A stretch of DNA of 64,000 bases, from IMG/VR virus record IMGVR_UViG_3300049830_000285, positions 32,001 through 96,000 of that record, one strand, 5' to 3'. The notes beneath the pieces were generated by a model. The model did not search any database. It saw only the letters and a list, made by a program, of their open reading frames with translations, and was not told where the DNA came from. Below, piece by piece: positions 1,851-56,217 of this stretch. The translations under genes and the position numbers were made by a program. Source of the stretch: a virus. Numbering within the stretch: position 1 is the first letter of the stretch; each line of letters starts with the position of its first letter.

Positions 1851-1875
1851 AGGTGAAAACAAAAAAGATTTAGAA
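1851..1875 (+). promoter_or_regulatory. AGG-N18-NGAA motif (candidate late promoter), head operon
   Basis: AGG 1851-53, AGAA 1872-75. One of 12 equally spaced copies. Confidence 0.6.
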
Positions 1876-1887
1876 GACATTAAGTGT

Positions 1888-1907
1888 TGCGAGAAATAGT
1901 TCTCGCA
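1888..1907 (+). other. 5' UTR hairpin of the head operon
   Basis: TGCGAGAA-ATAG-TTCTCGCA perfect 8-bp stem, upstream of the SD and ATG 1935. Confidence 0.5.
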
Positions 1908-1934
1908 CGAGACAGAAAGGGAGCAAGTCAGTAA

Positions 1935-3794
1935 ATGAAAACTCAAAATACAAGCGCCCACCGTGATGCGGTTCGAAAGTCAATGAAATTGGCTGAGTTC
2001 CGTGACATCTTAAGTGCTACTGACGCAACCGATATGGAAACCTGTGTAAATGATTTAGTCAAGAATGCAGGATTGAGCATAACGGAGGCGCGAGTAGTTG
2101 CTGCTGCCTATCGCAACGAAGCTCTTCCTCGAATTGCCCATGAAATGGGATTAGGAGAAGAAGAAGCAAGAGGTGCAATAGGACTTCATGGTGGCATGAA
2201 GACTACTGACTTCGCAAAAGCTAAACCACACGACGACGAATTTAAAGACGACAAGGATGGCATCTTGCCTAGCGATGAATCTATTGATGAGGAAATCGAA
2301 GAGCATGGTCACACTCCATCAGCAGAGGAAGAAGGTATGGAAGGGGAAACCCCTGAAATGCACTCACCGGAAGTTGAGGAAGCTATCGAAGATAAAGGCG
2401 CTATGATGCCTAACGAAGATTTAAACACAGATTTAAGCGAAGTAAACGAAGATAAAGGCGAAACAGCTTTAATACAAATTGAAGTACCCGCAAGCGAGAT
2501 TGATGCAGTTCAACGATTGTTGGACGAACATTTCGGAGGCGGATTAAACGCTCACGATGATGATGCCCTGCCAATCAAGGAAGAATCTCTTCCAATGGAT
2601 GGTGGTGCAGAATTTGCGGAATCAGCCCCGGCAAACCCGCTAAATACACACGAACACGAACAGGTGGAACCACAAATGGATGCAAAACAGCTATTAGCTC
2701 GCAGAAATGAACGTGCTGCAATTCTTGCAGGCACAAACACCCGCACGGTTACTGCCGAAGATGACACAAAGCCAAAGGACATTGGACTTGGCAAGGATAC
2801 TTCTGATGGTGGAAAATCGTTCCAGTATGCGGGAGATGCTCAATATAAGGGCGAAGACGACCGACCAACTGCTACTAAGCAGAATTCTGAAGGCAATAGC
2901 CTTCGAGAACAGAATCCTACTTTCAAGAAGCAGCCAGTCCCAACCAACAACGCTGATAACCTACAGCTTAAGAGCGGCTATGACGCTGTTAAGAGAGAAG
3001 GCAGCCCTGACGGAACATTAGATTACACAGTCGATTTCGACCAGTTGAATAAAATTCCTTCGTCAGACCCAGACAGAATTGACGGATATACCGTCCCAAC
3101 ACAAATGCAAGAAGTAGTTGGCCCACGTAAGACGACTATTGCTGAGCGCATTGTAGAATGCAGCGGATGTAATAACCCTCATACAAAGTCTATTAATCAA
3201 GCTGAGTGTCAGGACTGCAAAACAGTCATTGCTATCTGTGAAGATTGCGAGAACGAAGGCTATTGCCCAGTTTGTGCAGGAGTCACAGTTGCTAAGACCG
3301 TTGAGGCAGAAGACAGTGGTGTAACAATCGAAATTGATGCCAAGAAAGATACTGAAGAAGCAAAGGGTACCAACCCTAGCGTCAAGCAGAACAATGGTGA
3401 TGGTTTCGTTCGCAAGCCACATGAAGACGACGAATCATCTCGTAAAGCGATGGCTCTATCCCAAGCTCGTATGAAGACAGCTTACTCTGTAAGCTACAAA
3501 CTTGCTTTGGCTGGTGTTATTGAAGCCGAGGAAGTGGACAGCAATGTGGATATGTGGTTGGCTGATGGCTTGAGCCCAGCGACTATGGTTTCACAAGGCA
3601 AGTTAATGCTTAAGTCCGCATCGTCAGCGGCAGAAAGAGTTGCTTCTAGCTTCTCTGATAATCGCAACGTTCGAACAGCGAACGTCTCTTTGAACCCTGG
3701 TGCATTTGTTACTGCGTCTACGCAAAACAATGCTCCAAATGACTTAAGAGAGGCTCTTCGCAGCATTCTCATGCCGAAATACGAGGATTCTTAA
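1935..3794 (+). CDS. Acidic scaffold-like head assembly protein with internal Cys-rich Zn-binding segment
   Basis: 619 aa, very acidic, CxxC pairs (CSGC, CQDC, CEDC, CPVC), helical C-terminus. SD present. Directly upstream of decoration and capsid genes. Confidence 0.55.
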   Translation: MKTQNTSAHRDAVRKSMKLAEFRDILSATDATDMETCVNDLVKNAGLSITEARVVAAAYRNEALPRIAHEMGLGEEEARGAIGLHGGMKTTDFAKAKPHDDEFKDDKDGILPSDESIDEEIEEHGHTPSAEEEGMEGETPEMHSPEVEEAIEDKGAMMPNEDLNTDLSEVNEDKGETALIQIEVPASEIDAVQRLLDEHFGGGLNAHDDDALPIKEESLPMDGGAEFAESAPANPLNTHEHEQVEPQMDAKQLLARRNERAAILAGTNTRTVTAEDDTKPKDIGLGKDTSDGGKSFQYAGDAQYKGEDDRPTATKQNSEGNSLREQNPTFKKQPVPTNNADNLQLKSGYDAVKREGSPDGTLDYTVDFDQLNKIPSSDPDRIDGYTVPTQMQEVVGPRKTTIAERIVECSGCNNPHTKSINQAECQDCKTVIAICEDCENEGYCPVCAGVTVAKTVEAEDSGVTIEIDAKKDTEEAKGTNPSVKQNNGDGFVRKPHEDDESSRKAMALSQARMKTAYSVSYKLALAGVIEAEEVDSNVDMWLADGLSPATMVSQGKLMLKSASSAAERVASSFSDNRNVRTANVSLNPGAFVTASTQNNAPNDLREALRSILMPKYEDS

Positions 3795-3830
3795 TCGGTT
3801 TCGGAAATCTCTAGGAGGAAATAAAAAACA

Positions 3831-8930: not shown

Positions 8931-9457
8931 TAACAATTGACGAATTGCAAGTCACGCAACGGAATATTAGGAATCCAGAGCAACTTGCGCGAATGACTGC
9001 ATTTGTAAAGAACGATGGATTTTTCACCAAAAATTGTTTAAGCAAGCACCAAAGTCGTGGAAAGACATCTCCATTAATCGAAATCACACAATTTGAAGAT
9101 GGACAATATTTTTTACACGACGGACATCATCGTGCAGCCGCTATTGTGCTGGGTGGAAGAGATTTCATCGACGGGACAGAATATCGAATCCGTCAGTTCA
9201 CATATGAACAATACATCAAACCAAATTTAGCAGTTGAATGGTGGACACCGTTCGACCCTAGAATCGAACTTCGTCTCACGGATACTTCCACTTACAAAAA
9301 TATGTTACATAAGCTGAAAGATGCTGTTCCCCCAGAAACAGAGGATATTTCAATGCTGGAGGAAGCATTGCTGCATAGCATTTACACTAAGCGTCATTTA
9401 TACGTCGAACCCCGAAATGGTTTGTTTACATTGCGCGAATTTGTAGGCTCTTTGTAA
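8927..9457 (+). CDS. ParB/sulfiredoxin-like N-terminal domain protein
   Basis: LQVTQ..., PLIEI and YFLHDGHHRAAA match the ParB-like DGHHR motif. Confidence 0.6.
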   Translation: MITIDELQVTQRNIRNPEQLARMTAFVKNDGFFTKNCLSKHQSRGKTSPLIEITQFEDGQYFLHDGHHRAAAIVLGGRDFIDGTEYRIRQFTYEQYIKPNLAVEWWTPFDPRIELRLTDTSTYKNMLHKLKDAVPPETEDISMLEEALLHSIYTKRHLYVEPRNGLFTLREFVGSL

Positions 9458-9470
9458 CATCTGGTAGAAT
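9445..9470 (+). promoter_or_regulatory. AGG-N18-NGAA motif overlapping an extended -10 (TGGTAGAAT)
   Basis: AGG 9445-47, AGAA 9466-69, ATG at 9479. Confidence 0.55.
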
Positions 9471-9478: not shown

Positions 9479-10015
9479 ATGTGGTATCGAAACATTGTGA
9501 CAGCGGAGCAACACACAAGTGTAATTGTGGCTCTTTGGCTGCCCGATGACAAAGCAAAAAAACTGGCTTTGAAAAAAACAGACGTAGACAAACCCGAAGC
9601 TGCTGACAGTCTACATTTAACAATGCTTTATATCGGAAAAGCAGATGCGCTTAAAGATAAACGTGAGCTTATTGAATCCGCTCTAGAAGCTATGTCAAAT
9701 CAATACCCGGCAATTAAGGGTAAAGTTCAAGGCGTTGGATGTTTTTCTGGCAATGATGAAACAAAACCATTTTATGCATCTTATGATTCTGCGGAGCTTT
9801 CAGAAATTCGACAAAAACTTGTTGAAACGATGGAATCTTTGGGAATCGAGCTTGATAAGACACATGGATTCACACCCCATATTACATTGGCTTATATTGA
9901 TGCCAATGATGATTTACCAAATGTTAATGTTCCAGATTTAGCTATAGATTTTGACAAATTGACACTAGCCTGGGCTGGAAAGCAAACTCATTATTCTTTA
10001 AACCAAAAAAGTTAA
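9479..10015 (+). CDS. 2H phosphoesterase (LigT / 2'-5' RNA ligase family)
   Basis: Two HxT motifs (LHLTM, PHITL). N-terminal MWYRNIVTA leader. Confidence 0.88.
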   Translation: MWYRNIVTAEQHTSVIVALWLPDDKAKKLALKKTDVDKPEAADSLHLTMLYIGKADALKDKRELIESALEAMSNQYPAIKGKVQGVGCFSGNDETKPFYASYDSAELSEIRQKLVETMESLGIELDKTHGFTPHITLAYIDANDDLPNVNVPDLAIDFDKLTLAWAGKQTHYSLNQKS

Positions 10016-11026: not shown

Positions 11027-11092
11027 TACGTATAGAATTAAAAAGGATTTCAGTTGATTTTGCGGTAAAATAATAGTTCGCGAGATGTCCCT

Positions 11093-11327: not shown

Positions 11328-11402
11328 GACCCCATAGTTCAGTGGTGGAACAGCTATCTCTAAAATGGCGTGTCGCGAGTCCGATTCTCGCTGGGGTCAC
11401 CA
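11328..11402 (+). tRNA. tRNA with CUA anticodon (amber suppressor type)
   Basis: Acceptor GACCCCA/TGGGGTC, A73, encoded CCA. D-stem GTTC/GAAC. Anticodon stem GCTAT/ATGGC with loop CT-CTA-AA. T-arm GCGAG-TCCGATT-CTCGC. Confidence 0.9.
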
Positions 11403-12260: not shown

Positions 12261-12348
12261 GCTCCAGTAGCTCAATGGTCAGTAGCCACGGTTTCTAAAG
12301 CAGAAGGCCCTCACAAGGTATATGCGGGTTCGAGTCCCGTCTGGAGCG
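12261..12348 (+). tRNA. Degenerate tRNA-like element, apparent CUA anticodon, long variable region
   Basis: Acceptor GCTCCAG/CTGGAGC, G73, T-arm GCGGG-TTCGAGT-CCCGT, loop TT-CTA-AA. Anticodon stem ACGGT/GCAGA has only 3 of 5 pairs. No encoded CCA. Confidence 0.6.
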
Positions 12349-12359
12349 CTCAAATTTAT

Positions 12360-13749: not shown

Positions 13750-13774
13750 AGGAATAATGCTGCCGATTGGAGAA
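13750..13774 (+). promoter_or_regulatory. AGG-N18-NGAA motif
   Basis: AGG 13750-52, AGAA 13771-74, ATG 13797. Confidence 0.6.
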
Positions 13775-13796
13775 AAAATCTTTAATCGGTGGCATT

Positions 13797-14426
13797 ATGC
13801 GTTTATCCCTGGCAAAAAAACTTCTGAAAATAGCTAACGAACTCGACGCGCTCAGTTTGTATGAAGAAGCAAATTCCTTAACAAATATAGTGAGAGAAGC
13901 ACAAACTATGCCTGATATGTCTCAGACCCAAGCACCAACACAGCCATATCAACAGCCATATCAACAGCAACCTTGGACTGCTCCCGCCGCCGCACCAACA
14001 CCCTACAACGCTCCTCAAGCTCCCTACAACGCTCCATACAACGGTTATGCACAACAACAGAGTGGATGGTATAACCAACCTCAAATACCGCTGCCTCCGC
14101 AGAATAACGTAAATCCACAACAGACACAGCAACAACTGTTAAATATGCCAGCTAGTCCATTTACGGCAGTTAGGTTTGGGCCAGATGGTAAACCTCTTCC
14201 GCAACAAAGACAGCAGACAATGCAAGAATATGTAAACAACTATATCAAATCTATGCAAAGCAAAATGCAAGGTCAGGGTCAATCTGGCGCAAATAATACG
14301 ATTCAAAACGCTAGACAAATGCAGATTCAACAACGAAGAAATGAATTAGCTGCCGAAGATGCTCAATTGGCGTCAGAGCAATACAATCAAAATCTTGGTG
14401 ACGGACATCCAAAATTATATAAGTAA
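13797..14426 (+). CDS. Gln/Pro-rich low-complexity protein with IANELD-type leader (candidate internal head protein)
   Basis: N-terminus MRLSLAKKLLKIANELDALSLYEEANSLTNIVREAQ, then QQPY and PYNA repeats. Confidence 0.65.
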   Translation: MRLSLAKKLLKIANELDALSLYEEANSLTNIVREAQTMPDMSQTQAPTQPYQQPYQQQPWTAPAAAPTPYNAPQAPYNAPYNGYAQQQSGWYNQPQIPLPPQNNVNPQQTQQQLLNMPASPFTAVRFGPDGKPLPQQRQQTMQEYVNNYIKSMQSKMQGQGQSGANNTIQNARQMQIQQRRNELAAEDAQLASEQYNQNLGDGHPKLYK

Positions 14427-15620: not shown

Positions 15621-15728
15621 GTATTAAGGTATTTTTAATGTCGCAAATTGCTCTTAAATAGTATAGGAATTTTTGAAATTCTACATAAATATTCCATAGG
15701 TGGTGCTACGAACACCACTTTTACTAAC

Positions 15729-16799: not shown

Positions 16800-18214
16800 A
16801 CAACAACGACCACCACAACAAAGAAAATTTCTCAACAAAACTGCTAAGGGAAATGTGGGAATTTATATTTCACAAACACGATTCCCCCCATTGTGGTTGC
16901 CCTCCTCACTGCGGCGAACCCCCTCATTGTGGCGAACCCCCTCACTGCGGTTGTCCCCCTGACGGTGGCGGCATAAACATTGGTTGTGCTTTTGCTTTAT
17001 TTTTGTTTTGGTTTTGGCTGCCAGTGATGATGTTTGTTATGAAACTTGGAAGTAAATCAAATAAAAAAAAAGATGAAGAAATTAAAGTAAAGCCAAAAGT
17101 TGCTTTTATTAGTGTTTATAACACTCCATGCGGTATATCAACATACAACGAACAATTGATAAAACAATTGAGAAAGCATGCTGATGTTCATGTGTTCGCT
17201 GAATATGCCGATGATGAAAAAAATATCAGCATAGAAGGCGACCCCGATTTTGTAACTCGTTGTTGGAGTCGGACTGAGCACCCTAAAACAAAATTAATGT
17301 TTGCAGTGGATAACTGGAAACCAGATTTGATTCATTTTGGTCATGAATATGGTTTTTTTGCCAAAGCCTATTTGTTCACGTCTCTTGTTTCTTGGTTCAA
17401 AGCACACAAATATATTGTTATAGCAACAATGCATTCTATTTATGAGCACAGAGATAAAACTGTTCAAGAGGCGAGTGGTCAAATTATTATCACACATACA
17501 GAGTCTGGTAAAAAATGTCTAACAGATAAAGGAATAGACCCGTCTATTATCACCGTCATTCCACATGGCTCCAATGTTTTAGATGGTGATGCTGGTAATC
17601 CGAAGTTACTACCAGCACTCTGGAACACATGGCAGAACGAACATACAATTTTTCAACCCGGTTTTCTGTTTGACTACAAGGGTCATATTAGGATGCTTGG
17701 TGTGATAGCTGAGTTGAAAGAAAAATACCCAGATATTCATTACATTATTCAAGGTTCTGAAAACCCAAATAACATGAAGGAACACGACAGGGTATTTCAA
17801 CGATTAGTTTCAGAATGTAAACGATTGAATATAGAGGAAAACGTTACCATCAATCGAGGCTTTGTGAGCGAAGATGTATTGATGTCGTTTGTTCGCACCA
17901 CCAAAGTATGTGTTTTGCCATATATTAGCCATCCCGAGCACGATGTTTGCTCTACATCTGGTATTGCCAGAGTAGTAGTCGGGACTGAAATACCGCTAAT
18001 CACAACCAAAGTACATCTTTTTGATGATGTTGCTGGCATAGCCACTCAAGTAGGGAATGACCATGAACTGTATAATGCTATTGATGATGTATTTAGCAAC
18101 CCGCAAGCGCAAGGCGCTGCGAACAATGCTCGCGTGGAATTTTTGAAACAAACCAATTGGGATAATGTTGCAAAAATGCACTTTGACTTGTATACAAAGG
18201 TTATAAAGGGCTAA
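16796..18214 (+). CDS. Glycosyltransferase, GT-B (GT4-like), with N-terminal His/Cys repeats and TM segment
   Basis: CGISTY, DLIHFGHEYG, IPHG, PGFL..YKG, VLPY and G.PLITT motifs. ATGA overlap with upstream gene. Confidence 0.8.
   Translation: MNNNDHHNKENFSTKLLREMWEFIFHKHDSPHCGCPPHCGEPPHCGEPPHCGCPPDGGGINIGCAFALFLFWFWLPVMMFVMKLGSKSNKKKDEEIKVKPKVAFISVYNTPCGISTYNEQLIKQLRKHADVHVFAEYADDEKNISIEGDPDFVTRCWSRTEHPKTKLMFAVDNWKPDLIHFGHEYGFFAKAYLFTSLVSWFKAHKYIVIATMHSIYEHRDKTVQEASGQIIITHTESGKKCLTDKGIDPSIITVIPHGSNVLDGDAGNPKLLPALWNTWQNEHTIFQPGFLFDYKGHIRMLGVIAELKEKYPDIHYIIQGSENPNNMKEHDRVFQRLVSECKRLNIEENVTINRGFVSEDVLMSFVRTTKVCVLPYISHPEHDVCSTSGIARVVVGTEIPLITTKVHLFDDVAGIATQVGNDHELYNAIDDVFSNPQAQGAANNARVEFLKQTNWDNVAKMHFDLYTKVIKG
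16883..16960 (+). repeat. In-frame 18-nt tandem repeat x4 encoding (S/P)PHCG(C/E)
   Basis: tccccccattgtggttgc cctcctcactgcggcgaa ccccctcattgtggcgaa ccccctcactgcggttgt. Confidence 0.85.
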
Positions 18215-18222
18215 AACATGAA
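18198..18222 (+). promoter_or_regulatory. AGG-N18-NGAA motif
   Basis: AGG 18198-200, TGAA 18219-22, ATG 18241. Confidence 0.55.
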
Positions 18223-18240
18223 ATATTGTGTGGTGATGTC

Positions 18241-18675
18241 ATGAAAAGAAAAGAAGTTATTGCTACGTTGATTCATATTTCTGATGATTTAGATAGCATG
18301 GGAATGTTTGATGATGCAGATTCGCTAACCCGTTTTGCACAAGCTTGGGGCGAATTAGGGATGCACGATGTAGAATCGAATCCAGATAACGATGCCGCAG
18401 AGCATGGATTTATGGGCGAGCATCAATATGAACAAGAGCAAAAATTAATGAATGAAATGAACAATGAAGATGCATTGATGACTCTTGATGCACGCATTAA
18501 GGAACTTCAACATAAACCAGCTCCAACAATGGAAGAAATTCACGAATTAGAATCTCTGTTGGATTATCGAATGGGCGACGGATTTGATTCTTCAAATGTA
18601 TCTTCTCCGCACAAACACGATGAATCCGGTTTTGTCAATGAATTGCAAAACGCGGGCGCTAAAGTAATTAACTAA
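18241..18675 (+). CDS. Acidic protein with ISDDLD-type leader (candidate internal head protein)
   Basis: N-terminus MKRKEVIATLIHISDDLDSMGMFDDADSLTRFAQ. Confidence 0.65.
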   Translation: MKRKEVIATLIHISDDLDSMGMFDDADSLTRFAQAWGELGMHDVESNPDNDAAEHGFMGEHQYEQEQKLMNEMNNEDALMTLDARIKELQHKPAPTMEEIHELESLLDYRMGDGFDSSNVSSPHKHDESGFVNELQNAGAKVIN

Positions 18676-31915: not shown

Positions 31916-31940
31916 TTCTAGCAGAAGTCTTTGAAATCCT
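31916..31940 (-). promoter_or_regulatory. AGG-N18-NGAA motif, tail operon
   Basis: Minus strand AGG 31940-38, AGAA 31919-16, ATG 31902. Confidence 0.6.
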
Positions 31941-31943: not shown

Positions 31944-32432
31944 TTACTTGGAGTCTGATTTTCCGCCAGAAGCTGGGTTGCGCGGAGCATTCATCAAAGT
32001 GTTGCGAATAAATCTATTTGCACGAAGATTAACCTGGCCCACTAATAGTCGTTCACCGTTTTGTATTTTAGCCAATTCTGTGTGAGCCCATGCTTCGCGT
32101 TCTTTCTGAGAATCACTTCTCTGACGGTCTGCGCCCTGTAATCTTTGCTCCCAAATCATCTGAGCAGCCAGTAAAGCGGCAACAGATGGAATTGGTTGTG
32201 GATATCCCACTTCTCCGCCCTGATTAACTTTGACTAAAGGTACATCAAATTGCGTGGCAAGAGCGCCGTCAATGTGCGAACATGCTTGTTGAATAAAAAA
32301 ATCAACATCAATGTTGGTTAATGATTCCGGGTTGGGATTCATTGGATTCGGTGTCGGATTTTGTCCCTGTGAAACAATTCCCTCGGGAAGATATTGTTTC
32401 ACGGAATCTTCATCGCAATAACTACGTGCCAT
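31944..32432 (-). CDS. Head-tail adaptor (Mu gp36 / DUF1320-like)
   Basis: YCDEDSV, FIQQACSHIDGALATQFDVPL, LAA..IW and AHTEL.KIQNG pattern. Confidence 0.7.
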   Translation of the reverse strand: MARSYCDEDSVKQYLPEGIVSQGQNPTPNPMNPNPESLTNIDVDFFIQQACSHIDGALATQFDVPLVKVNQGGEVGYPQPIPSVAALLAAQMIWEQRLQGADRQRSDSQKEREAWAHTELAKIQNGERLLVGQVNLRANRFIRNTLMNAPRNPASGGKSDSK

Positions 32433-33166: not shown

Positions 33167-33191
33167 TTCTGCAAATTAGTCTGGATGTCCT
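33167..33191 (-). promoter_or_regulatory. AGG-N18-NGAA motif
   Basis: Minus strand AGG 33191-89, AGAA 33170-67, ATG 33154. Confidence 0.6.
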
Positions 33192-33879: not shown

Positions 33880-34365
33880 TTATACAGCAGGTTTCATTTG
33901 TTTTGCTTCAGACTTAGACCATTTAAAACTTTCAACATCCACTCCAAGTTGGTCGCCAATACCCAAAATGTAATTCATCATATCAGCTTCAGAAACACCG
34001 TCAGGTGCTTTGAAGATAACAGTACACGTATGAGTCTTTCTGTCATCCACAACTGGCTCTTCGCCTGGACGCATTTTTACAAAACTAGAAATACCAGGGT
34101 TCATCGAGGATTCTTGTTCGCCTTCATCGGCTGTATCGCCCTCATCTGCCATATTTTGGAAAGACGGATTGTACCCGCCACTACCGCCAGCCATATTAGT
34201 TGATTGCCCAGTGTCTCCAAAGAATTGAGCGATTCTGCGCAACTCTTTAGCTCGTGGGTGGTTAATAGATTCCAATTTGCTTGCAATCCTTTCAATATTC
34301 TGCTTCATTTCTGCAACGTTCTCTTTCATTTGTCCACCTGTGGAATTTTTTACGATTTTTGACAC
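33880..34365 (-). CDS. Hypothetical protein with IASKLE-type leader variant
   Basis: IERIASKLESINHPRAKELRRIAQ, then Gly/acidic linker and a small alpha/beta domain. Confidence 0.65.
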   Translation of the reverse strand: MSKIVKNSTGGQMKENVAEMKQNIERIASKLESINHPRAKELRRIAQFFGDTGQSTNMAGGSGGYNPSFQNMADEGDTADEGEQESSMNPGISSFVKMRPGEEPVVDDRKTHTCTVIFKAPDGVSEADMMNYILGIGDQLGVDVESFKWSKSEAKQMKPAV

Positions 34366-34448
34366 CCTATAATTAGGCTATATACTTTACTTAGATACAA
34401 TTGTAGTTTTCTCCTACTTCATTAAAATTAGCATATAAGTCAAAATTG

Positions 34449-35618
34449 TTACTTATTAAGATTCGTTTCGAACTTTCTAAGTGCCTCTAGAATTTCTCCT
34501 TCAGAGGATTTATCGAGAATATCTGACATACTCATTCCTTTCTTTCGATATTCTACTGCTTCAGGCCAAATTTTATTGATTGGATGCTCGCTTAATATCT
34601 TGGGGTCAGTGTTATCAGCAATTTCTGCATATGAATCATTAACATATTTAGACAGTGTAAGCATTCTATTAATTAGCGATTGTGTTGAGAATATTTCCCC
34701 GGTTATTCCGCTGCTAAGCGAAGCATGACTACCAGTACCTCCTCCACCACTACCCGTGTTATAGCCACTTCCTGCATCCATCATGCGAATTTCTCGCAAA
34801 GCTGTAAGTTCATCTTGCGGAGAATAAAATTGAAGCATTTGAAGAAATTTGGGATTTCTTAATTTTAATCTGTGAAAATATTTGTCGATGAGAATATAAC
34901 CCTCGTAAGATAATGGGTCACTATTCTTCTCAATCAATTTTTGAGCACTTTCTAAATCTTTTACTTTCACGAAAGGTACTTTTAAATTTGGAAATTCCAT
35001 CTCATAAATATCTAATTCTTCTAATGTATCTCGGGCTATGGCAGCTATCAGAGTAACTTTTCTATCTGTGTAAACTACCACAACTCTATTTTCGGGTGAT
35101 GTTATTTCAAATGTGTAGAAAATATCTTGATTGAGTTGCGAAGTGAATGTATTCCAATCACTTCCCATGTCTTGAATGCATTTTTCCACTAGCTGTCGCC
35201 AAGTATAATTTGAAGGACTAGCGTTAATTGTGTAATTTTTGATATCACCATCAGTGGAATGTCTAGTACATACGCGCCATTCATTCTGATAATGGTAAAA
35301 TGTGATAAGAGCGCCATCTAATTTGGTCATAGCCCGAGCGCTTGACCAGTCAAAGTTAGCAATGGTTGGTGCTGCATAAGTTTCTTCTACTGCGAAAAAA
35401 GCCTCAGGCGACTTACTTACAACATTCCATGTTCCTACTTCCAGCACGAGTGCGCGACTCTCTTGTACAATTTTCGAATCCATTGGTGAAAGAACTCTGT
35501 AATTAAATACTACTCGTTGGTTGTCAGACGAGTAGTTGTGTTGAATCTCATATCTTTGGTATAAATCTTCTAGGGTTTTACCAGAGCGTAAAAAAGTTTG
35601 AATGGCGAGTTCTTTCAT
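34449..35618 (-). CDS. RNA ligase, T4 Rnl1 family
   Basis: FNY, ESRALVL, KLDG (motif I), FEITSPENRVV, EGYILID (motif IV) and RLKLRN (motif V variant). Confidence 0.85.
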   Translation of the reverse strand: MKELAIQTFLRSGKTLEDLYQRYEIQHNYSSDNQRVVFNYRVLSPMDSKIVQESRALVLEVGTWNVVSKSPEAFFAVEETYAAPTIANFDWSSARAMTKLDGALITFYHYQNEWRVCTRHSTDGDIKNYTINASPSNYTWRQLVEKCIQDMGSDWNTFTSQLNQDIFYTFEITSPENRVVVVYTDRKVTLIAAIARDTLEELDIYEMEFPNLKVPFVKVKDLESAQKLIEKNSDPLSYEGYILIDKYFHRLKLRNPKFLQMLQFYSPQDELTALREIRMMDAGSGYNTGSGGGGTGSHASLSSGITGEIFSTQSLINRMLTLSKYVNDSYAEIADNTDPKILSEHPINKIWPEAVEYRKKGMSMSDILDKSSEGEILEALRKFETNLNK

Positions 35619-35628: not shown

Positions 35629-35653
35629 TTCGCATTAAGGAATCAATTTACCT
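35629..35653 (-). promoter_or_regulatory. AGG-N18-NGAA motif
   Basis: Minus strand AGG 35653-51, CGAA 35632-29, ATG 35618. Confidence 0.6.
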
Positions 35654-39990: not shown

Positions 39991-41052
39991 TTAAACACCG
40001 CCTTTCCAAAGCTGCCTAAAGAATCTAGAGCGCCCGCCCGGAAGCATATGTGTTTGTGTAACAATGGTACGAATCTTGGGATAAGAAGAAATTGGAAGCG
40101 TTTTAAGTGCCATTTTCCACCATTCTTCATAAGACTTCATAGTTTCTCTAATGTCTTTAATGGCATCATATGCGTCCCTGTCAGGGTCTTGCACGAGCAA
40201 CCGCCATTCTCGGTCATTTAAGTTGGCTAAAAGCTGTCTGTAGAGCCAGAATGCAGCGCCTTGAACAACACCTTGCTCCCACCAAAATGGCATTTGTCCA
40301 ACGCTACTAATTTTTGGTGCCCCTGGCTGTGAGCTGATTGCTTGCAGGGCGTAAATTGTTGCAGCATTAATTTCATAGTTGGTGAACATTTTAACGGGGT
40401 ATGTTGCATATACTGTATCATAGTCATGAATCGTGTATGGAGAGCCATCTGAGCTTCTGAAAAAATGCACGCGACCCTGATAATCAAGTCTGTACAACAA
40501 GCCATCAGCATAGTTATCTGTACCTCCACTAATGGTTTTGAAAATAGGTGTGTTTTCACTTAATACAATAACGGGACTTCTGTCACCATCATTTGAAGCG
40601 CCAGAAATATGGATTTGCGGTCTTGGAAAGTAATTCCAGTTATTGTATGCGAATTTACACCAACTTCTGTCAGTTCCTTCAAAAACACCTTGCTCTCGAT
40701 ACACCATTTTTCTGGTAAATTGTCGAACTTCATACAGAATACTGGAAATGATTAAATATTCGTCACCAGAAAAAGGCTGAGTTGTGGCAACTACATTATT
40801 GCTAGCATTAATTTCTTGAATCTTATAGTAAGTGCTCGGGTTGCCTTTTTTATCTACATATTCATCCATTGGAAAATCAACAGTGCCAATAAGTGAATAG
40901 TTACCATCTAAGTGTGTAGAACTTAAAATATTGTATTTGATAATGCCACTGGTATTGATTCTATCCCATCGTACTAAAATCCCCGGTAGAGCCATACTTT
41001 GAAAATATGACTCTGCTACATCTTGATTTGCGCCTAATGGTGTATCTGCCAT
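39991..41052 (-). CDS. Putative neck/head-completion protein with FN3-like N-terminus
   Basis: ILVRW..YNI..EYVD..YYKI N-terminal module and helical C-terminus. Function is positional inference. Confidence 0.45.
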   Translation of the reverse strand: MADTPLGANQDVAESYFQSMALPGILVRWDRINTSGIIKYNILSSTHLDGNYSLIGTVDFPMDEYVDKKGNPSTYYKIQEINASNNVVATTQPFSGDEYLIISSILYEVRQFTRKMVYREQGVFEGTDRSWCKFAYNNWNYFPRPQIHISGASNDGDRSPVIVLSENTPIFKTISGGTDNYADGLLYRLDYQGRVHFFRSSDGSPYTIHDYDTVYATYPVKMFTNYEINAATIYALQAISSQPGAPKISSVGQMPFWWEQGVVQGAAFWLYRQLLANLNDREWRLLVQDPDRDAYDAIKDIRETMKSYEEWWKMALKTLPISSYPKIRTIVTQTHMLPGGRSRFFRQLWKGGV

Positions 41053-41061: not shown

Positions 41062-41096
41062 TTCGAAAGGCGATAGGGTTTTACCTATCGCCTTTC
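41062..41096 (-). terminator. 13-bp hairpin with embedded AGG-N18-NGAA motif
   Basis: GAAAGGCGATAGG-GTTTTA-CCTATCGCCTTTC (41065-96). Minus strand AGG 41086-84, CGAA 41065-62, ATG 41052. Confidence 0.65.
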
Positions 41097-41116
41097 ATAA
41101 AACACTTGATTACTTA

Positions 41117-42154
41117 TTAACCAAGTCGTCGCACGCCGCCGCTTGAATCATCAAAATCGCTTGCTAAATCAATCTCTTCTGCGTAGCCTTCGTCATCCTC
41201 AAGATTGTCTAAGTCAACAAAATCGGGAATTGGAGCGCCGTGTGGCATTGCATTTGGATTAAAAGGGTCAATGTACCCCTGGTCATTTTGCAAACTTCCC
41301 AAACCCATAGCAGAACTTCCAGCAAGTCGTTGGTCTCTGTTATAGTTGGTCATATTCACCTGGTTTACATTTGTGCCGTATTGACCGTCATTTCCAGGAG
41401 AAATGACTGTTGCTCGTCCGCGCCCAGTTGCACCAGAAATAACACCGTCATCAAACATATCTTCTCGATTAAGCAATCTAGCAACCAATGATGGCTGCTT
41501 TCGAACCATACCAGCAAAGGTGTGAGCGTCAAGAGTAACACCACGGTCTTCATATTGCATACGTGCTTCTGAAAATGCGGTGGCGTAAGACATTGGGTCA
41601 TTCGCATGTCCCGCAGTGCTTACTTGGTCTTGTGCTGCTCGTCCACCGTCAGCTTTGTTTAAGTTCAAAACTTCAGCTTCAAGAATTCGACCATCGGCAT
41701 TTACTGTTCGTGTGCGTCGATTACTAATTCGAGATGTTTCAGCACGAGCTTCAGCAGCTTTAATGTGCATGATTCTATCCCAACTATCTTGAGAAATTCG
41801 GATAAGGTGGCCTAAGCTAATAGCTCTTCGCAAATCCTGACTTCGTTTAACGATAGCCGGGTCTTCCCATGTAAGGTCTCGGACTTCCAATCCGCCAAAT
41901 TCCATTCCAATATCTGAAATATAAAGTGGGCCTTCGAATGTATTCTGAACAATAAATGTTTCAGTTACAGGCTGTTGTGGTGGAGCCACTTGCTGTTGCT
42001 GAGGGGCTACCCAAGCTTGCTGTGGTGGGGAAGTTTGAACAACTTCTTGTCGAATCGCCGCCGCACGAGTCTGCTTAACTGGTGTTTTAGCAGGGACTTT
42101 TGGACTTGCGGTTTTCTTAACCGCTGTTTTTGCAGGTTTCTTAATTTCACTCAT
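41117..42154 (-). CDS. Hypothetical virion-associated protein
   Basis: 345 aa, Lys/Ala-rich N-terminus, acidic C-terminus, SD AGGAG. Confidence 0.65.
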   Translation of the reverse strand: MSEIKKPAKTAVKKTASPKVPAKTPVKQTRAAAIRQEVVQTSPPQQAWVAPQQQQVAPPQQPVTETFIVQNTFEGPLYISDIGMEFGGLEVRDLTWEDPAIVKRSQDLRRAISLGHLIRISQDSWDRIMHIKAAEARAETSRISNRRTRTVNADGRILEAEVLNLNKADGGRAAQDQVSTAGHANDPMSYATAFSEARMQYEDRGVTLDAHTFAGMVRKQPSLVARLLNREDMFDDGVISGATGRGRATVISPGNDGQYGTNVNQVNMTNYNRDQRLAGSSAMGLGSLQNDQGYIDPFNPNAMPHGAPIPDFVDLDNLEDDEGYAEEIDLASDFDDSSGGVRRLG

Positions 42155-42199: not shown

Positions 42200-42224
42200 T
42201 TCTGTATCATTCGGGTTTTGACCT
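42200..42224 (-). promoter_or_regulatory. AGG-N18-NGAA motif
   Basis: Minus strand AGG 42224-22, AGAA 42203-200, ATG 42154. Confidence 0.6.
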
Positions 42225-42805: not shown

Positions 42806-43149
42806 ACTTGATTTTGTAGTTGATTGTAAACTAACGCGCTAATACATACCACGAGAGTCACTGCGATGGTGAATAGCCATCCAAAAATGACTCCATTAAG
42901 GTAGATAATTGCTAATATGAGCAAAATGTTGATGGCAGTTACAATATAATCAGTGATAGTTGTGGCTCTAAGTTTTGGCATGAAAAATGACAAGATAAAC
43001 ACACATGTGCTATAAGCCACAACTCTCAAAAGAAGCAGAGTTATTAATATTGTCATTGGTAAAACTAACCACATGCTCATATACAGGTTCAATAGATTCA
43101 TATGAGGAAATTTCAATAGTAGGATTGAATAACAAAATTTGAGAAACAA
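42802..43149 (-). CDS. Small membrane protein with about 3 TM segments
   Basis: Hydrophobic stretches throughout. Start uncertain. A holin role is possible but unproven. Confidence 0.55.
   Translation of the reverse strand: MFLKFCYSILLLKFPHMNLLNLYMSMWLVLPMTILITLLLLRVVAYSTCVFILSFFMPKLRATTITDYIVTAINILLILAIIYLNGVIFGWLFTIAVTLVVCISALVYNQLQNQV
43121..43145 (+). promoter_or_regulatory. AGG-N18-NGAA motif
   Basis: AGG 43121-23, AGAA 43142-45, ATG 43165. Confidence 0.6.
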
Positions 43150-43164: not shown

Positions 43165-44571
43165 ATGAGTGAACAGGAAAATTCAGAAGATTTAAGAATT
43201 CCAGATATTTTGCTGGATATACAGGGGATGAGAACATCTTCCAGGGAAGTTGATGCCGCGACTATCGTTGAAGCTCAGCGTATTTTGGAAGCCAATCGAA
43301 ATATTGAAGCTGGTATTGCTGATATTTTAACAAATCTTATTAAAAACAGAAGAGTCACACCGGAAGAAGTTTCTGGAATTTTGAATAAAATCAAAAGCAT
43401 TAAAGCTCCAGCATTACCATCAACATTACCAGCGGGCACTATTAATCCAGCGCAAGCACAACATGATGCTATGATTGATTTTCTAGAGCAACTTAATAAC
43501 AATACTCAGAACAAATTTCTTCACTCACCTTTTCACAAGGGAATGAATCCAAATTGGAAGCAGTTGGGCGAAGTTGCCGACCAAGCCAAAGCTGGTGCTC
43601 CAGGTTCTTTTGAGGCAATGCAACAAGCGATGGGCACCACCGCAAATGGTGTTGAAAATGCTTTGAAAAAGTATTGGAGAGTTGCAAAATGGTTCACACC
43701 TGTCGATGAGGCTATGCTGAATAAGCAAATGATTGGTGTTTACAAGCTCGGAGACCACGGACAGCAAATACAAATCACCTATAAACAGTTCTTTGAAGGC
43801 GCTGGTTCTATGAACTACACCCCTGGAATGGAAACAACAGGAAACATAGTGATGAGTAGCCCCGATGCAGTGAAAATTTCATTATCAAAATTGGCAACTA
43901 CTATTGGTGGTAGCGCGACTTTAAGAGGTTTAGCGCAAACTACAGCCACCGCCGCAGCTACTGTAGCTGCGATTCCAATGGCTGCTGGCGTGGCTGGTAC
44001 ACTTTGGGGATTTGGTCAAGGCATGAAAAATGCACCTGGACAGGTTGATTATGACAAAGCGCTTCCTGGTAATTCGGCATTAACTGTTGACCCATCTATG
44101 AATAATAATCCAGCATCAGTTGGCGCTCCGAAAACAAGTCCGTTGGGTGGAACAACTAATGGAAATAATATTGGCGGATTGGGTGGACAATATAGTCCAA
44201 AACCGAACATTGGTTGGACTCCCACAAAGCCAAATTTGCCATCTAATCCCAACGATTGGTTGCCAACCTCACCAACTGATTACTACAATCTTGTTGACCG
44301 CAAAAGTGATAGCGAGAATGAAAATATTCGTTTATCACAAATGGCTTCAACACCAGTTGATGATGTTGATACGGTTGTAAACAATTTGTTGACTATATTG
44401 GAGCAAGGGGCACCAGGCGAAGCTACTTTACAGCAAGCTCTAAACTATTTGTCTCATGAAGATTCAAAGGCACAACCTTTGATTCATCAATTTCAAATGC
44501 AACAAAATGCACAGCTATCACAAGCTCCTACAAACAACCAGGAAATACCAGACCAATTGCCAAAGAGATAA
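43165..44571 (+). CDS. Putative internal virion / ejection protein
   Basis: 468 aa, Ala/Gly hydrophobic segment (AAATVAAIPMAAGVAGTLWG), first gene behind the late-type motif. Confidence 0.45.
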   Translation: MSEQENSEDLRIPDILLDIQGMRTSSREVDAATIVEAQRILEANRNIEAGIADILTNLIKNRRVTPEEVSGILNKIKSIKAPALPSTLPAGTINPAQAQHDAMIDFLEQLNNNTQNKFLHSPFHKGMNPNWKQLGEVADQAKAGAPGSFEAMQQAMGTTANGVENALKKYWRVAKWFTPVDEAMLNKQMIGVYKLGDHGQQIQITYKQFFEGAGSMNYTPGMETTGNIVMSSPDAVKISLSKLATTIGGSATLRGLAQTTATAAATVAAIPMAAGVAGTLWGFGQGMKNAPGQVDYDKALPGNSALTVDPSMNNNPASVGAPKTSPLGGTTNGNNIGGLGGQYSPKPNIGWTPTKPNLPSNPNDWLPTSPTDYYNLVDRKSDSENENIRLSQMASTPVDDVDTVVNNLLTILEQGAPGEATLQQALNYLSHEDSKAQPLIHQFQMQQNAQLSQAPTNNQEIPDQLPKR

Positions 44572-52595: not shown

Positions 52596-52610
52596 TGTAC
52601 AATATGTAGC

Positions 52611-52961
52611 ATGAACACCAATATTAAATCAACTCCAACAGAACCTGTAAATTTTCGCATCAATACTGAAATGGTGGTTAATTTAAAAAGACTCGCCAGA
52701 CATGTATCTTATCATCTTGATGATGATTATACTTATGTGGACATCATTAGATGTTTGCTGGCAGAACATTTTCCAGTTCCAGAGACAGACTTAATTGCAG
52801 ATACCCAATCAAAACAGGTACAAGATATTTGTTCACGTATTACCAGACAGGCTGCTTTAGCGGGCGTACCGTACATTTCCTCAACCTTTACATCCAGTAC
52901 ATCTATAGAAGGAACTACAATTTCTGGCTTAAAACAAAACAACCTAGATGAGAGCGAATAG
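52611..52961 (+). CDS. Ribbon-helix-helix-like DNA-binding protein (ends in TAG)
   Basis: PVNFRINTEMVVNLKRLA....TYVDIIRCLL fits a strand-helix-helix pattern. TACAAT lies 7 nt before the ATG. Confidence 0.5.
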   Translation: MNTNIKSTPTEPVNFRINTEMVVNLKRLARHVSYHLDDDYTYVDIIRCLLAEHFPVPETDLIADTQSKQVQDICSRITRQAALAGVPYISSTFTSSTSIEGTTISGLKQNNLDESE

Positions 52962-52984
52962 GATTCGTTCAAATTAATGTTGAA
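52960..52984 (+). promoter_or_regulatory. AGG-N18-NGAA motif upstream of cca
   Basis: AGG 52960-62, TGAA 52981-84, ATG 53014. Confidence 0.55.
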
Positions 52985-53013: not shown

Positions 53014-55815
53014 ATGTGGTATGGAAAAATGTTGAAAGCAAATAAAAATGGAATCTCACGAGAGGAATTGAACATCCCTCTGAGCGGCGCTTTGCAACAA
53101 ATTCTACAAACATTGGTACAAAATGGCTGGAGAGGCTTGGTCGTTGGCGGGGCTGTTCGAGACGCTGTAACAGGTCATGTTCCCAAGGATATCGACGTTG
53201 AAGTTTACGGGCCTGATTTCAAACAGCTTGCGGCAGTTCTCAAGCAATATGGTCATGTACTTGGCGGCGCAGCGGATGAATCAGTAGACGATAATTCATA
53301 TCAAGAATTTGTGCCCATTCCTTATTTTCCAGAAAAGTTCAGGGATTCACAACCATCTCAAATGAGTTCAGATGGCCCAATTCCCAATCAAGGGTGGATG
53401 TACAATCTAAATCCAAAGCCTCAAAAATCTCCTGTTATTGGAAAGGCGTTCGGTGTTATCAAATTTAGAGATGCCGAAGGGAACGATTATGACTTCTCCT
53501 TACCTCGTCGTGACAGTAAGACGGGTGAGGGTCACACTGGATTTGATATTCAAGTAGACCCAAATATGTCTCCACTTGAGGCTGCATCACGGCGTGATTT
53601 TACGTTTAATTGTTTTTCATCTGAAACAAGAATGTTGACAAAAGCTGGAATTTTTAGTTTTTCAGAGTTGGTAGAACAGTATGTTGATGTTTTAAATCAA
53701 AACGGTGAATGGGTCAATGCTTTAATTAGAGCATGCGGACAACAGCCGTTAATGAAGTTAATTTTACAAAGAAATGGAGTTAAAAAAGAAATATTTGTAA
53801 CACCAAATCACAGATGGTTTGTGCGCAACAAACATACTGGAAATTACACATCTGTACGCACCACTGAAGAATTAAAAAAATGTCATTTTATATCATCTGT
53901 TTTTCCTAAAAATATTTCAAAAGATGTTATCCCAAATAATGATGCAATATGTCGCGGGTTTGTGTTTGGCGATGGGTCTTTAACATATGGTAGTAGAAAC
54001 ATTGCTAGTGTTGCAAATTTTTGTGGAGAGAAAGACAAAAATTTATTACCTTGTTTTTCAAAACTCCCTGTAGGTTGTTCTCCAAGAGAATACCCTGGTG
54101 TCATAAAAATTCAAGGATTGCCATTTGAGTGGAAAGCCCATGTTCCTGATTTAGAACACGAAGATACATCGTATTTATATGGATGGTTGGCGGGATATTT
54201 TGCCGCAGACGGCTGTGTTGATAAAAAAGGGTGCCCGACATTAAGTTCTGCATCGTTAGAAAACATTGAATATGTAAAAATGTTATGTCAAAAACTAGGA
54301 ATAGGAACTTTACACACAAGTGTTTCTCACGGAGGCGCTGGGGCATACAAACCAGACTCTGTGTGTTATATACTTGCTTTTGTAAGGTCAACACTATGCC
54401 CTGAGTTTTTTGTAATTCCTGAACACAGAAAAAGATTTGTGTCTCATCAATACAATAGAGAAAGAACTGGATGGAGCGTTGTTTCAGTTGAAGAAACTGA
54501 CCGTTACGAAGAAGTTTTTTGCGCAGAAGTGCCAATTGACCATGCATTTGTTTTAGAGCACAATGTATTAACTTCGAATTCACTTGCATACGACCCGTTG
54601 ACAAACGAACTTCATGATTACTTTGGCGGTAAAAAAGATTTGGATAATCGAATTTTGCGTGCTACAGATATGGAAAAATTTGGGGAAGACCCACTGCGCG
54701 TTTTGCGCGGTATGCAATTTGCTGCCAGAATGGGATTGACAGTAGACCCGCAAACTGCAAAGTTGGCGCAAAATCTTGCAAATGAAATTCCTAATCTTTA
54801 TAAGTCTCCAGAGAATCCAAATGGCATCTCTCGCGAACGTGTAACTGAAGAATTTATGAAGCTTGCTACCAAGGGTAAATTCCCAGGTAGTGCAATTCAG
54901 TACCTTCAAGATACTGGTTGGGTAAAATACTTCCCGCAAGTTCAGGCTATCATTGATGTACCGCAGGATGAAGAGTGGCACCCAGAGGGAGCTGTACATA
55001 TTCACACAGCACACGTCATGAACGCTGCTGCTGAAATCGCTGATAGGCGCGGTTTGAAAGGTGATGACAGGGCTGTTGCAATCTTTGCAGCGCTCGGGCA
55101 CGACTTCGCTAAAGCAACGACAACAGAGCAGCGCGAAAAGGGCGGACGAATGCGATGGACGGCACATGGGCACGAAGAGGCTGGCGGGCCGGTGGTAAAA
55201 GAGTTTTTACAGAGCATCGGAGTTAAAAATGACATTATTAATCGTGTTGTTCCGCTTGTCCGTAAGCATTTGAATCACATTCAATACAAAGACGAGAACA
55301 TTTCCAAGGGAACTGTTCGTGGTTTGTCGCATGATATTTACCCTGCGACTATAGAAGACTTGGTTGACTTGATTGAAGCAGACCATTCTGGACGCCCGCC
55401 TTTGGAGAAGATGCTACCAGAGCAAGCTCAATGGTTATTGGATGCGGCTAAGAAAGATAATGTTCACAATCAGAAGCCACAACAGGTTATCACTGGAAAG
55501 CATGTATTGCCATGGTTCCAGGGTAAAGTTGGCCCGCACGTCGGAAAAGCAGTTAAGGAAGCTTATGAAGCCTACTTAAAGGGCAGATACACCACCCCAG
55601 AAGAGGCAGAAGTATGGTTACGCAACTATATGAAGGCAAATGCTCAATTACTGCGTGGTGATGATGTTTTGCCATATTTTGGCGGTAAAGGCGGCGCTCA
55701 AGTCGGACAAATATTAGATAAAGCCTGGGACGCTCAATCTGCTGGTGAATATACTGACCAAGATGCAGCGAGAGCTTGGTTGGAAAACTATATGAAAACT
55801 AACCCATCCGCTTAA
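53014..55815 (+). CDS. cca: Class II tRNA nucleotidyltransferase (CCA-adding) with HD domain, intein-containing
   Basis: VGGAVRD..DIDVE, RRDFTFN, EDPLRVLRG.QFAAR, SRERV.EEF.K, HPEG..HIH and GHDFAK motifs. Confidence 0.92.
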   Translation: MWYGKMLKANKNGISREELNIPLSGALQQILQTLVQNGWRGLVVGGAVRDAVTGHVPKDIDVEVYGPDFKQLAAVLKQYGHVLGGAADESVDDNSYQEFVPIPYFPEKFRDSQPSQMSSDGPIPNQGWMYNLNPKPQKSPVIGKAFGVIKFRDAEGNDYDFSLPRRDSKTGEGHTGFDIQVDPNMSPLEAASRRDFTFNCFSSETRMLTKAGIFSFSELVEQYVDVLNQNGEWVNALIRACGQQPLMKLILQRNGVKKEIFVTPNHRWFVRNKHTGNYTSVRTTEELKKCHFISSVFPKNISKDVIPNNDAICRGFVFGDGSLTYGSRNIASVANFCGEKDKNLLPCFSKLPVGCSPREYPGVIKIQGLPFEWKAHVPDLEHEDTSYLYGWLAGYFAADGCVDKKGCPTLSSASLENIEYVKMLCQKLGIGTLHTSVSHGGAGAYKPDSVCYILAFVRSTLCPEFFVIPEHRKRFVSHQYNRERTGWSVVSVEETDRYEEVFCAEVPIDHAFVLEHNVLTSNSLAYDPLTNELHDYFGGKKDLDNRILRATDMEKFGEDPLRVLRGMQFAARMGLTVDPQTAKLAQNLANEIPNLYKSPENPNGISRERVTEEFMKLATKGKFPGSAIQYLQDTGWVKYFPQVQAIIDVPQDEEWHPEGAVHIHTAHVMNAAAEIADRRGLKGDDRAVAIFAALGHDFAKATTTEQREKGGRMRWTAHGHEEAGGPVVKEFLQSIGVKNDIINRVVPLVRKHLNHIQYKDENISKGTVRGLSHDIYPATIEDLVDLIEADHSGRPPLEKMLPEQAQWLLDAAKKDNVHNQKPQQVITGKHVLPWFQGKVGPHVGKAVKEAYEAYLKGRYTTPEEAEVWLRNYMKANAQLLRGDDVLPYFGGKGGAQVGQILDKAWDAQSAGEYTDQDAARAWLENYMKTNPSA
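53611..54579 (+). mobile_element. Intein with LAGLIDADG homing endonuclease (323 aa)
   Basis: Cys1 CFSSETRMLT, block B TPNH, GFVFGDG and LAGYFAADG motifs, C-terminal VLTSN followed by Ser+1. Removal restores RRDFTFN-SLAYDP. Confidence 0.92.
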
Positions 55816-56173
55816 ATTTGGATGAGGTATTTGCTTGTAAATTCAAGTTATTGACCTGGCCTGACATAATGGATTGATACATTTGTCGGGCAGCGTCATC
55901 ATTTAAGCCAGACGGGTCGATTCCAGCACCTCTTAATGCGGAGTGTATGTTCATCATTTCCATTTGGTCATTCATTTGATTACCCATTTGTTGATTTCCC
56001 ATCATACCATTCATGAAATCTGGCATTTGTGATTCATCACCGCCAGAATTAAAATCTTGAATAGGCCCGTTTATGTTTGATAGACGCACCATTACTTGCG
56101 TTATTACCTCTGCCTCTTTGTGCATCCCTACTTCATCAAGTTGATTGGCGATGATTTCAAGTTTATCTAGCAT
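55799..56173 (-). CDS. Met/Asn/Gln-rich protein with IANQLD-type leader (ends in TAG)
   Basis: N-terminus MLDKLEIIANQLDEVGMHKEAEVITQVMVRLS. Start set at ATG 56173. Confidence 0.65.
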   Translation of the reverse strand: MLDKLEIIANQLDEVGMHKEAEVITQVMVRLSNINGPIQDFNSGGDESQMPDFMNGMMGNQQMGNQMNDQMEMMNIHSALRGAGIDPSGLNDDAARQMYQSIMSGQVNNLNLQANTSSKFKRMG

Positions 56174-56192
56174 TGTGTCCCTTGTATCTTTT

Positions 56193-56217
56193 TTCGAAAT
56201 AGAGTTTGCCACATCCT
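56193..56217 (-). promoter_or_regulatory. AGG-N18-NGAA motif
   Basis: Minus strand AGG 56217-15, CGAA 56196-93, ATG 56173. Confidence 0.6.

Follow-up and report, generated by a model that had tools for sequence, protein, structure and literature searches.

A probable promoter class with fixed spacing

A bipartite element, AGG-N19-GAA, precedes twelve genes in the stretch of viral DNA analysed here, a window of 64,000 nt that forms bases 32001-96000 of one 177,708-bp contig from an uncultured phage (IMG/VR record IMGVR_UViG_3300049830_000285; 40% GC; record ~47% complete according to CheckV). Probably, AGG-N19-GAA represents a class of -35/-10 promoters in this phage and its whole clade, which would be read by a phage-encoded SigH-like sigma factor on the host core RNA polymerase (RNAP) and would serve non-early transcription units. 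A 4-kb megablast against a phage collection gave no match, and no deposited phage is a near match to the contig. Positions given below are those of the window unless the genome is named.

The placement of the element was evaluated on a crude map of 212 open reading frames (ORFs) covering the whole contig, in which AGG-Nd-GAA was counted on the sense strand from -100 to -1 of the starts. At d=19, there are 19 sites genome-wide, 12 of them in the window, whereas every other spacing in the range 8-31 gives 0-9 sites (mean ~3.7). Of the 67 matches in the genome, 19 fall within these upstream stretches, which cover 5.9% of the strand positions (binomial p 7e-9); the enrichment is seen in the window alone (p 7e-10) and also in the contig outside the window (p 0.017), which had not been seen when the motif was first noticed. 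The same upstream stretches contain four matches in antisense orientation, and 2000 local shuffles gave an upstream count of 5.0 +/- 2.2 (standard deviation) with a highest value of 13. The total in the whole window is at the chance level (26 vs 26.6 +/- 4.9 expected from dinucleotide shuffles) while the upstream matches at d=19 are enriched; therefore, the motif is special by its placement and spacing, not by its abundance. The copies concentrate upstream, in the sense orientation and at d=19 only. In a blind ranking of 81,920 trimer-gap-trimer dyads, AGG-N19-GAA came first (p 3.5e-6), and shifted forms of it came second (GGT-N17-AGA) and sixteenth (GGT-N18-GAA). Other high-ranking dyads, such as TGA-N22-GAC, were rejected as incoherent coding-sequence effects.

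A first-pass annotation, made from the letters of the window alone, had listed twelve sites 9-60 nt before start codons and proposed that they form a bipartite phage promoter, estimating about one chance match among some 60 upstream regions. All twelve are exact AGG-N19-GAA at the positions and on the strands that it gave; the distances hold as well, with the first in-frame ATG assumed at sites 13750, 18198 and 56217 (22, 18 and 19 nt, respectively), and the chance estimate was about right. The sites, named below by the position of their AGG, are as follows (PWM, position weight matrix score).

1851..1875, plus strand: predicted SigH-type promoter; exact match; 59-nt leader with a AAAGGGAG Shine-Dalgarno (SD) sequence; 619-aa gene 1935-3794; PWM 14.1
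9445..9469, plus strand: predicted promoter; exact match; 9 nt before the ATG of a 178-aa 2H/RNA-ligase-like gene, 9479-10015 (phrog_14859, E 1e-20)
13750..13774, plus strand: predicted SigH-type promoter; exact match; 22 nt before in-frame ATG 13797 of ORF 13767-14426; PWM 15.9
18198..18222, plus strand: predicted SigH-type promoter; exact match; ORF 18226-18675, in-frame ATG 18241, 18 nt on
31916..31940, minus strand: predicted SigH-type promoter; exact match; 13 nt before the ATG of a 259-aa tail-terminator-like gene, 31123-31902 (phrog_176, E 3e-5); heads a long minus-strand operon
33167..33191, minus strand: predicted SigH-type promoter; exact match; 12 nt before the ATG of the gene of a 240-aa MSWY protein, 32432-33154
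35629..35653, minus strand: predicted SigH-type promoter; exact match; 10 nt before the ATG of a 389-aa RNA-ligase-like gene, 34449-35618 (phrog_562, E 2e-27)
41062..41086, minus strand: predicted SigH-type promoter; exact match; within a hairpin; 9 nt before the ATG of a 353-aa FN3 and adaptor-like gene, 39991-41052
42200..42224, minus strand: predicted SigH-type promoter; exact match; 45-nt leader with a AAAGGAGA SD; 345-aa gene 41117-42154
43121..43145, plus strand: predicted SigH-type promoter; exact match; 19 nt before the ATG of a 468-aa gene, 43165-44571; PWM 16.2; heads a plus-strand operon; two more overlapping exact AGG-N19-GAA nearby, at 43085 and 43105
52960..52984, plus strand: predicted SigH-type promoter; exact match; 29 nt before the ATG of a 933-aa intein-containing CCA-adding enzyme gene, 53014-55815
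56193..56217, minus strand: predicted SigH-type promoter; exact match; 19 nt before in-frame ATG 56173 of a small ORF (55799-56266 frame); PWM 15.6

Anatomy of the sites and distance to the start codon

An alignment of 35 AGG-N19-GAA sites, in which AGG and GAA were fixed by the search, gives the consensus wAGGw, 14 variable bases, T-n-n-A-GAA-(A>T). The base after AGG is A or T in 31 of the 35 sites and never G, the base before AGG is likewise A or T in 31, and GAA is followed by A in 21 (60%) and by T in nine (26%). ECF-sigma promoters have AAC in the -35 and CGT in the -10 element; no such cores were seen in the aligned sites. We also considered whether AGG might bind a phage activator that aids the host sigma70 at a weak -10, in the manner of MotA at T4 middle promoters. 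Site 9445, which has a good extended -10 (TGGTAGAAT), would suit such an activator, and a second promoter class of this phage, in which a TTCCTCAAA box is combined with a sigma70 -10 (see below), makes promoters of the activator type plausible. However, the essentials of a sigma70 -10 are absent at most sites, with T at the -7 equivalent in nine and A at -11 in 23 of the 35; the sigma70 -10 fit (TTGTAG-N18-TAGAAT with TG) is found only at site 9445, the sites as a class have no TG extension, and the invariant G-A-A is the core of the SigH -10. An activator site is thus very unlikely.

Each site heads a run of co-oriented genes. At five sites (9445, 41086, 35653, 33191 and 31940) the start codon lies 9-13 nt past GAA, which is too short for an SD, so leaderless or nearly leaderless mRNAs with leaders of 0-4 nt are predicted there. 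Judged by the start distance deduced for C. difficile SigH promoters (see below), the A of the ATG would itself be the transcription start at promoters with a distance of 9-10 nt, and a leader of 2-4 nt would result at 12-13 nt. The distance is 18-60 nt at the remaining sites, and strong SDs are present at 42224, at 1851 and at one site 2641 nt before the window.

Conservation in related phages

Close relatives were found in a metagenome search with the conserved 353-aa protein, which is 84% identical in locus L028 and 78% identical in locus L029; a search with a single 649-aa protein found no relatives. Six of the window sites lie between 31.9 and 43.1 kb, and L028 has an exact AGG-N19-GAA at the orthologous position of each. 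In L029, four of these six are kept, one is a near-match and one is lost. Sites 33191, 35653, 41086 and 42224 are kept in both relatives and site 31940 is kept in L028, while the orthologue of site 43121 is exact in L028 and has TAA, a near-match, in L029. The boxes in L028 and L029 are 19 nt apart, and the identity over all pairs is 47% for the spacers and 52% for the flanks. The spacer of site 33191 has diverged, and the three spacers before the RNA-ligase-like gene at site 35653 (this phage, L028 and L029) are essentially unrelated with a box distance that is still 19 nt. The identity of the boxes in the relatives follows from how the sites were found; their recurrence at the same intergenic positions counts as evidence because a chance match is expected at ~2e-4 per position.

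More distant relatives, in which the 353-aa protein is 34-47% identical, are represented by 25 loci of ~20 kb. Summed over these loci, d=19 gives 54 upstream matches vs 3-18 at other spacings, and clear orthologous sites lie 9-10 nt before RNA-ligase-like genes and before genes headed by M(S)WY. Orthologues of site 33191 are among them, and site 35653 is kept in the distant locus L003, again with unrelated spacers. One match that recurs in the distant loci falls within the end of the upstream coding sequence and carries no weight as evidence. An independent replicate is provided by the complete relative G001 (378,848 bp), which has 41 upstream matches at d=19 vs 4-15 at other spacings, including 11 sites with a start codon 9-12 nt past GAA. 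In G005, a still more distant relative with 32% GC, the counts peak at d=18 (15) and d=19 (21). We regard these comparative data as the decisive evidence for the element.

The same data bear on the suspicion that the pattern is non-functional and was recognised post hoc, arising from base composition, from SD-like AGG combined with A-rich leaders, or from conservation of coding sequences and hairpins. In its favour are the chance-level count in the whole window, the selection of the pattern after inspection, the recurrent distant match in the coding C-terminus of an upstream gene, and the overlap of site 41086 with a hairpin. However, only d=19 is enriched, only in the sense orientation and above every local shuffle; the peak was replicated in genomes that had not been seen when the pattern was chosen; and the boxes persist at orthologous positions between genes while the spacers have diverged. 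A non-functional pattern is very unlikely, and this explanation is close to refuted. The promoter proposal of the first-pass annotation gains support from the orientation towards genes, the rigid spacing, the variable distance to the start, the position at the heads of transcription units, and the conservation of boxes between diverged spacers.

Genes starting with ATG/GTG-TGG-TAT (M-W-Y; once M-S-W-Y) stand nearly always directly behind AGG-N19-GAA, mostly 9-12 nt past GAA. Such genes are found in the window at 9479, 33154 and 53014 and in G001 at 183284, 246508, 341797 and 343553. Because of this distance, the shared 'leader' coincides with the predicted transcription start region.

Phage-encoded sigma factors

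The first-pass annotation had guessed that the recognising factor is encoded outside the window, and a suitable gene is indeed present at genome 3627-4265, ~28 kb before the window. Its 212-aa product has Sigma70_r2 (PF04542) at residues 29-79 and Sigma70_r4_2 (PF08281) at residues 154-196. The top five NCBIfam matches are all SigH/PRK08295 models (E 5e-40 to 3e-30), to nearly the whole of which residues 9-198 align; these models score 105.6-137 bits (127-137 for the four best), and the next family scores 66 bits. The best PDB sequence match is 3MZY, 'RNA polymerase sigma-H factor' (E 1e-15, residues 45-209), the others being at 1e-5 or weaker. Many metagenomic homologues of the protein are named 'sporulation-specific sigma factor' by JGI, and orthologues with 39-53% identity were found in all nine relatives' records tested.

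A second sigma factor, ECF-like and of 197 aa, is encoded at genome 6595-7188, also outside the window. Either this protein, or a sigma-domain protein of the head module, or an alternative sigma of the host (e.g. the host's SigH, if the host belongs to Bacillota) might read a genuine promoter in place of the 212-aa protein. The ECF-like gene is present in eight of the nine relatives, where it adjoins the SigH-like gene, usually at 3-7 kb. On the other hand, the boxes are of the SigH type and not the AAC/CGT usual for ECF, and the family of the SigH-like protein is the one that reads AGG...GAA. G005 has the motif peak and the SigH-like gene, and an ECF-like gene was not found in its 183-kb record, even beside the SigH-like gene; that record is a fragment, so this argues only weakly. 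Another reader is thus unlikely. The SigH-like sigma is assigned to the element because of its family resemblance, because the boxes are neither ECF-type nor sigma70-type, and, weakly, because of G005.

Neither sigma gene of this genome is preceded by a SigH-type site. The ECF-like one has a TGTATAAAA -10, 6 nt ahead of its GTG. In G001, an exact AGG-N19-GAA at C1:112468-112492 (L053) lies just before the ECF-like sigma gene 112530-113117, a placement that hints at a cascade from the SigH-like to the ECF-like sigma. Regarding the host, a homologue (P0011) that is 43% identical to the 353-aa protein is located on a 1.36-Mb contig of an Armatimonadetes metagenome-assembled genome (MAG), which could be a host hint or an artefact of binning or assembly.

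Under the SigH-type promoter reading, the host core RNAP would carry the phage-encoded 212-aa SigH-like sigma, region 4 of which would recognise AGG(A/T) and region 2 GAA(A/T), and transcription would start ~9-12 nt past GAA. Besides probable neck and tail genes and a glycosyltransferase operon, the non-early units switched on in this way would comprise the genes for RNA ligase-like enzymes, for a 2H enzyme and for the CCA-adding enzyme. Five of the window sites would yield mRNAs that are leaderless or have 0-4 nt leaders, and the others would yield leaders of 18-60 nt, several with a strong SD. The promoter is a predicted one, and we infer from sequence which sigma reads it, where transcription starts and when the units are expressed.

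Several points weigh against this interpretation or parts of it. First, the blind genome-wide dyad test, taken alone, is borderline after multiple-test correction. Second, the motif carries only ~12-17 bits, and several high-scoring copies are intragenic (12764, 56617 and 88182). Third, site 9445 is equally readable as a sigma70 extended -10 promoter, TTGTAG-N18-TGGTAGAAT (TAGAAT with TG). Fourth, the SigH model scores of the 212-aa protein lie under the equivalog cut-offs of TIGR02859/PRK08295 (105.6-137 vs 208-414 bits; for the four best, vs 208-295), so that the protein is SigH-like and not a curated SigH. Fifth, the ECF-like sigma co-occurs in eight of the nine relatives, so that co-occurrence cannot separate the two sigmas. 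Sixth, the boxes of site 41086 overlap a conserved hairpin, in which the AGG box is in the 5' arm and GAA is just past the 3' arm:

41064..41097, minus strand: 14-bp RNA hairpin, terminator or stabiliser; after the stop of gene 41117-42154; dG -23.9 kcal/mol, z -6.8

In L028, AGG is unpaired in the hairpin loop yet retained, which speaks for conservation of the box in its own right. In the distant loci L003-L027, a canonical terminator hairpin with a T-run followed by a GGAG SD is found ~90 nt before the 353-aa gene; at the same spot in this phage and its close relatives, the predicted promoter is inside a hairpin without T-run and without SD.

Target genes and near-matches

The targets that can be named are the two RNA-ligase-like genes, a weakly matched tail-terminator gene and the CCA-adding enzyme gene, the product of which consists of a PolyA_pol head and an HD domain and is interrupted by a LAGLIDADG intein. 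Most other target proteins have no PHROGs or Pfam family match, and for the 345-aa protein nothing usable was obtained from the ESM Atlas. The structure model of the 353-aa protein (pLDDT 79) comprises an N-terminal FN3 domain and a region that aligns to the head-to-tail adaptors of several podophages (Z 6-7.4, VIA-align 2), which is suggestive of an adaptor-like protein. Foldseek gave no clear fold for it; with structural matches that are FN3- and adaptor-like, its identification as a major capsid protein was rejected. Of the target labels in the first-pass annotation, those for head, neck and tail operons are largely unconfirmed, as most targets lack a family match. For the same reason 'non-early' is a safer term than 'late', and the targets include RNA-repair enzymes besides probable virion genes.

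The four near-matches proposed by the first-pass annotation exist, with TAA or AAA replacing GAA:

11044..11068, plus strand: near-match AGG-N19-TAA; small ORF at 11093; its 3' end is also a sigma70-like GGTAAAAT -10
15665..15689, plus strand: near-match AGG-N19-AAA; before ATG 15729
34391..34415, minus strand: near-match AGG-N19-TAA; before ORF 33880-34365
56235..56259, plus strand: near-match AGG-N19-AAA; divergent from the 56217 site; 1041-aa gene at 56280

A PWM scan with a relaxed core did not separate genuine sites from chance, the information in the motif being too low; thus, the near-matches are not assignable.

The TAG stops at 33190-33192 and 52959-52961 overlap the -35 AGG of the next predicted promoter (TAGG), and this overlap recurs at the orthologous sites in L028 and L029. 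It may explain the use of two of the phage's rare TAG stops. ARAGORN reports a tRNA with a CUA (amber) anticodon at 11328-11402 and an 89-nt tRNA-like gene, labelled Phe(aaa), at 12261-12349.

A second promoter class in the early-looking part

The early-looking part of the contig has no AGG-N19-GAA before its genes. It has another promoter class, an extended -10 (TGnTATAAT) 5-6 nt before ATG or GTG, a placement that predicts leaderless mRNAs. It occurs in window coordinates at 5493, 5951, 11289, 12831 and from 92873 onward; across the genome it is found mainly at window coordinates 93000-145000. A phage-specific TTCCTCAAA box is often located upstream of TGnTATAAT; this 9-mer is present in 15 exact copies across the 178 kb, each facing a -10-like sequence. 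The strongest upstream dyad in G001 is (T)CCC-N22-24-TATA, with 71 observed vs 10 expected. In addition, the 12-mer ATTTCTTGGTGT occurs exactly twice in the contig, at genome 2389-2420 and 26801-26837 (window -29611..-29580 and -5199..-5163), each time just before a gene start, once that of a clamp-loader gene and once that of a gene for 810 aa, and may act as a regulatory or translational signal common to both.

Implications

For a large, almost unannotated clade of uncultured freshwater phages of 180-480 kb, there is now a workable promoter model, through which the clade's transcription units and regulons become readable from sequence alone, together with a candidate sigma. The results also suggest that a phage has taken over, as its programme switch, a sigma lineage familiar in Bacillota for its role in stationary phase and sporulation, and the promoter-to-ATG geometry gives a concrete, testable prediction of leaderless phage mRNAs. 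In our judgement the gene switch is genuine but of a fairly ordinary phage kind, made from an unusual part. A bolder reading, which we put forward tentatively and hold to be doubtful on present evidence, is that the whole clade captured a SigH-family sigma and its rigid 19-nt geometry for the non-early programme, and that ~40% of the promoters are placed deliberately to start transcription at the start codon or within a few bases of it. This would create a leaderless gene set, to which the RNA-repair enzymes with an M(S)WY start would belong, with a separate late translation regime. The ATG-TGG-TAT start would then be partly a nucleic-acid signal (an initially transcribed or leaderless-initiation sequence) and not only a protein tag.

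Comparison with known systems

A literature search found no paper describing the sigma or the promoter of this clade. The closest resemblance is to the SigH (Spo0H) promoters of Bacillota such as B. subtilis, B. thuringiensis and C. difficile, for which the DBTBS consensus is RNAGGAWWW at -35 and RNNGAATWW at -10 (quoted in PMC8510167). Both have AGG followed by A/T at -35, GAA followed by A/T at -10 with a T four bases before GAA, and 18-19 nt between AGG and GAA; in addition, the phage sigma, like SigH, is a small two-domain protein (regions 2 and 4) with its best family and PDB matches to SigH. Among the 41 C. difficile SigH promoters in Table 3 of PMC7438776, the T precedes GAA by four bases (TGTAGAA) and both GAAT and GAAA are used; AGG-N18-GAA and AGG-N19-GAA are about equally common in the 30 spacers that we counted by hand, and transcription would start 9-12 nt past GAA provided that the sequences in the table run up to the mapped start, as their layout suggests. 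Unlike in C. difficile, the spacing in this phage is N19 only, although both spacings occur in its relative G005; unlike in the DBTBS consensus, GAA is more often followed by A than by T. The targets differ as well, being non-early phage genes instead of the stationary-phase and sporulation genes of the SigH regulon, and many of the phage promoters abut the start codon, unlike those of Bacillota. Here, moreover, the SigH-like factor is encoded in an uncultured freshwater jumbo phage. In known leaderless mRNAs the -10 lies ~6-10 nt before the ATG, and the phage likewise has GAA 9-13 nt before the ATG at five window sites, as do the orthologues in the clade, and TATAAT 5-6 nt before the ATG in its sigma70-type promoters; leaderless initiation is here a prediction from that geometry.

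Among phages, the Bacillus phage SPO1 re-aims the host RNAP with the sigmas gp28 (middle) and gp33/gp34 (late) (PMC13401047; bioRxiv 10.1101/2021.11.12.468384). To that extent the two phages are alike, since in both a phage sigma replaces, or here would replace, the host sigma on the host core RNAP and reads phage -35/-10 elements before later genes. The differences lie in the SigH-family lineage of the sigma, another consensus, the rigid 19-nt geometry and the frequent, predicted leaderless placement. In T4, late promoters consist of a -10 element alone and need the sliding clamp. The promoter of this phage is a rigid two-box one, unlike those of the T4 late class, and no late motif of the TATAAATA type was seen in this phage; meanwhile, the geometry of its second promoter class resembles the MotA-type middle promoters of T4. 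With both T4 late transcription (gp55/gp33, TATAAATA) and T4 middle transcription (MotA/AsiA), the AGG-N19-GAA system appears to share its general plan, in which a phage promoter class for non-early genes is served by a modified host polymerase.

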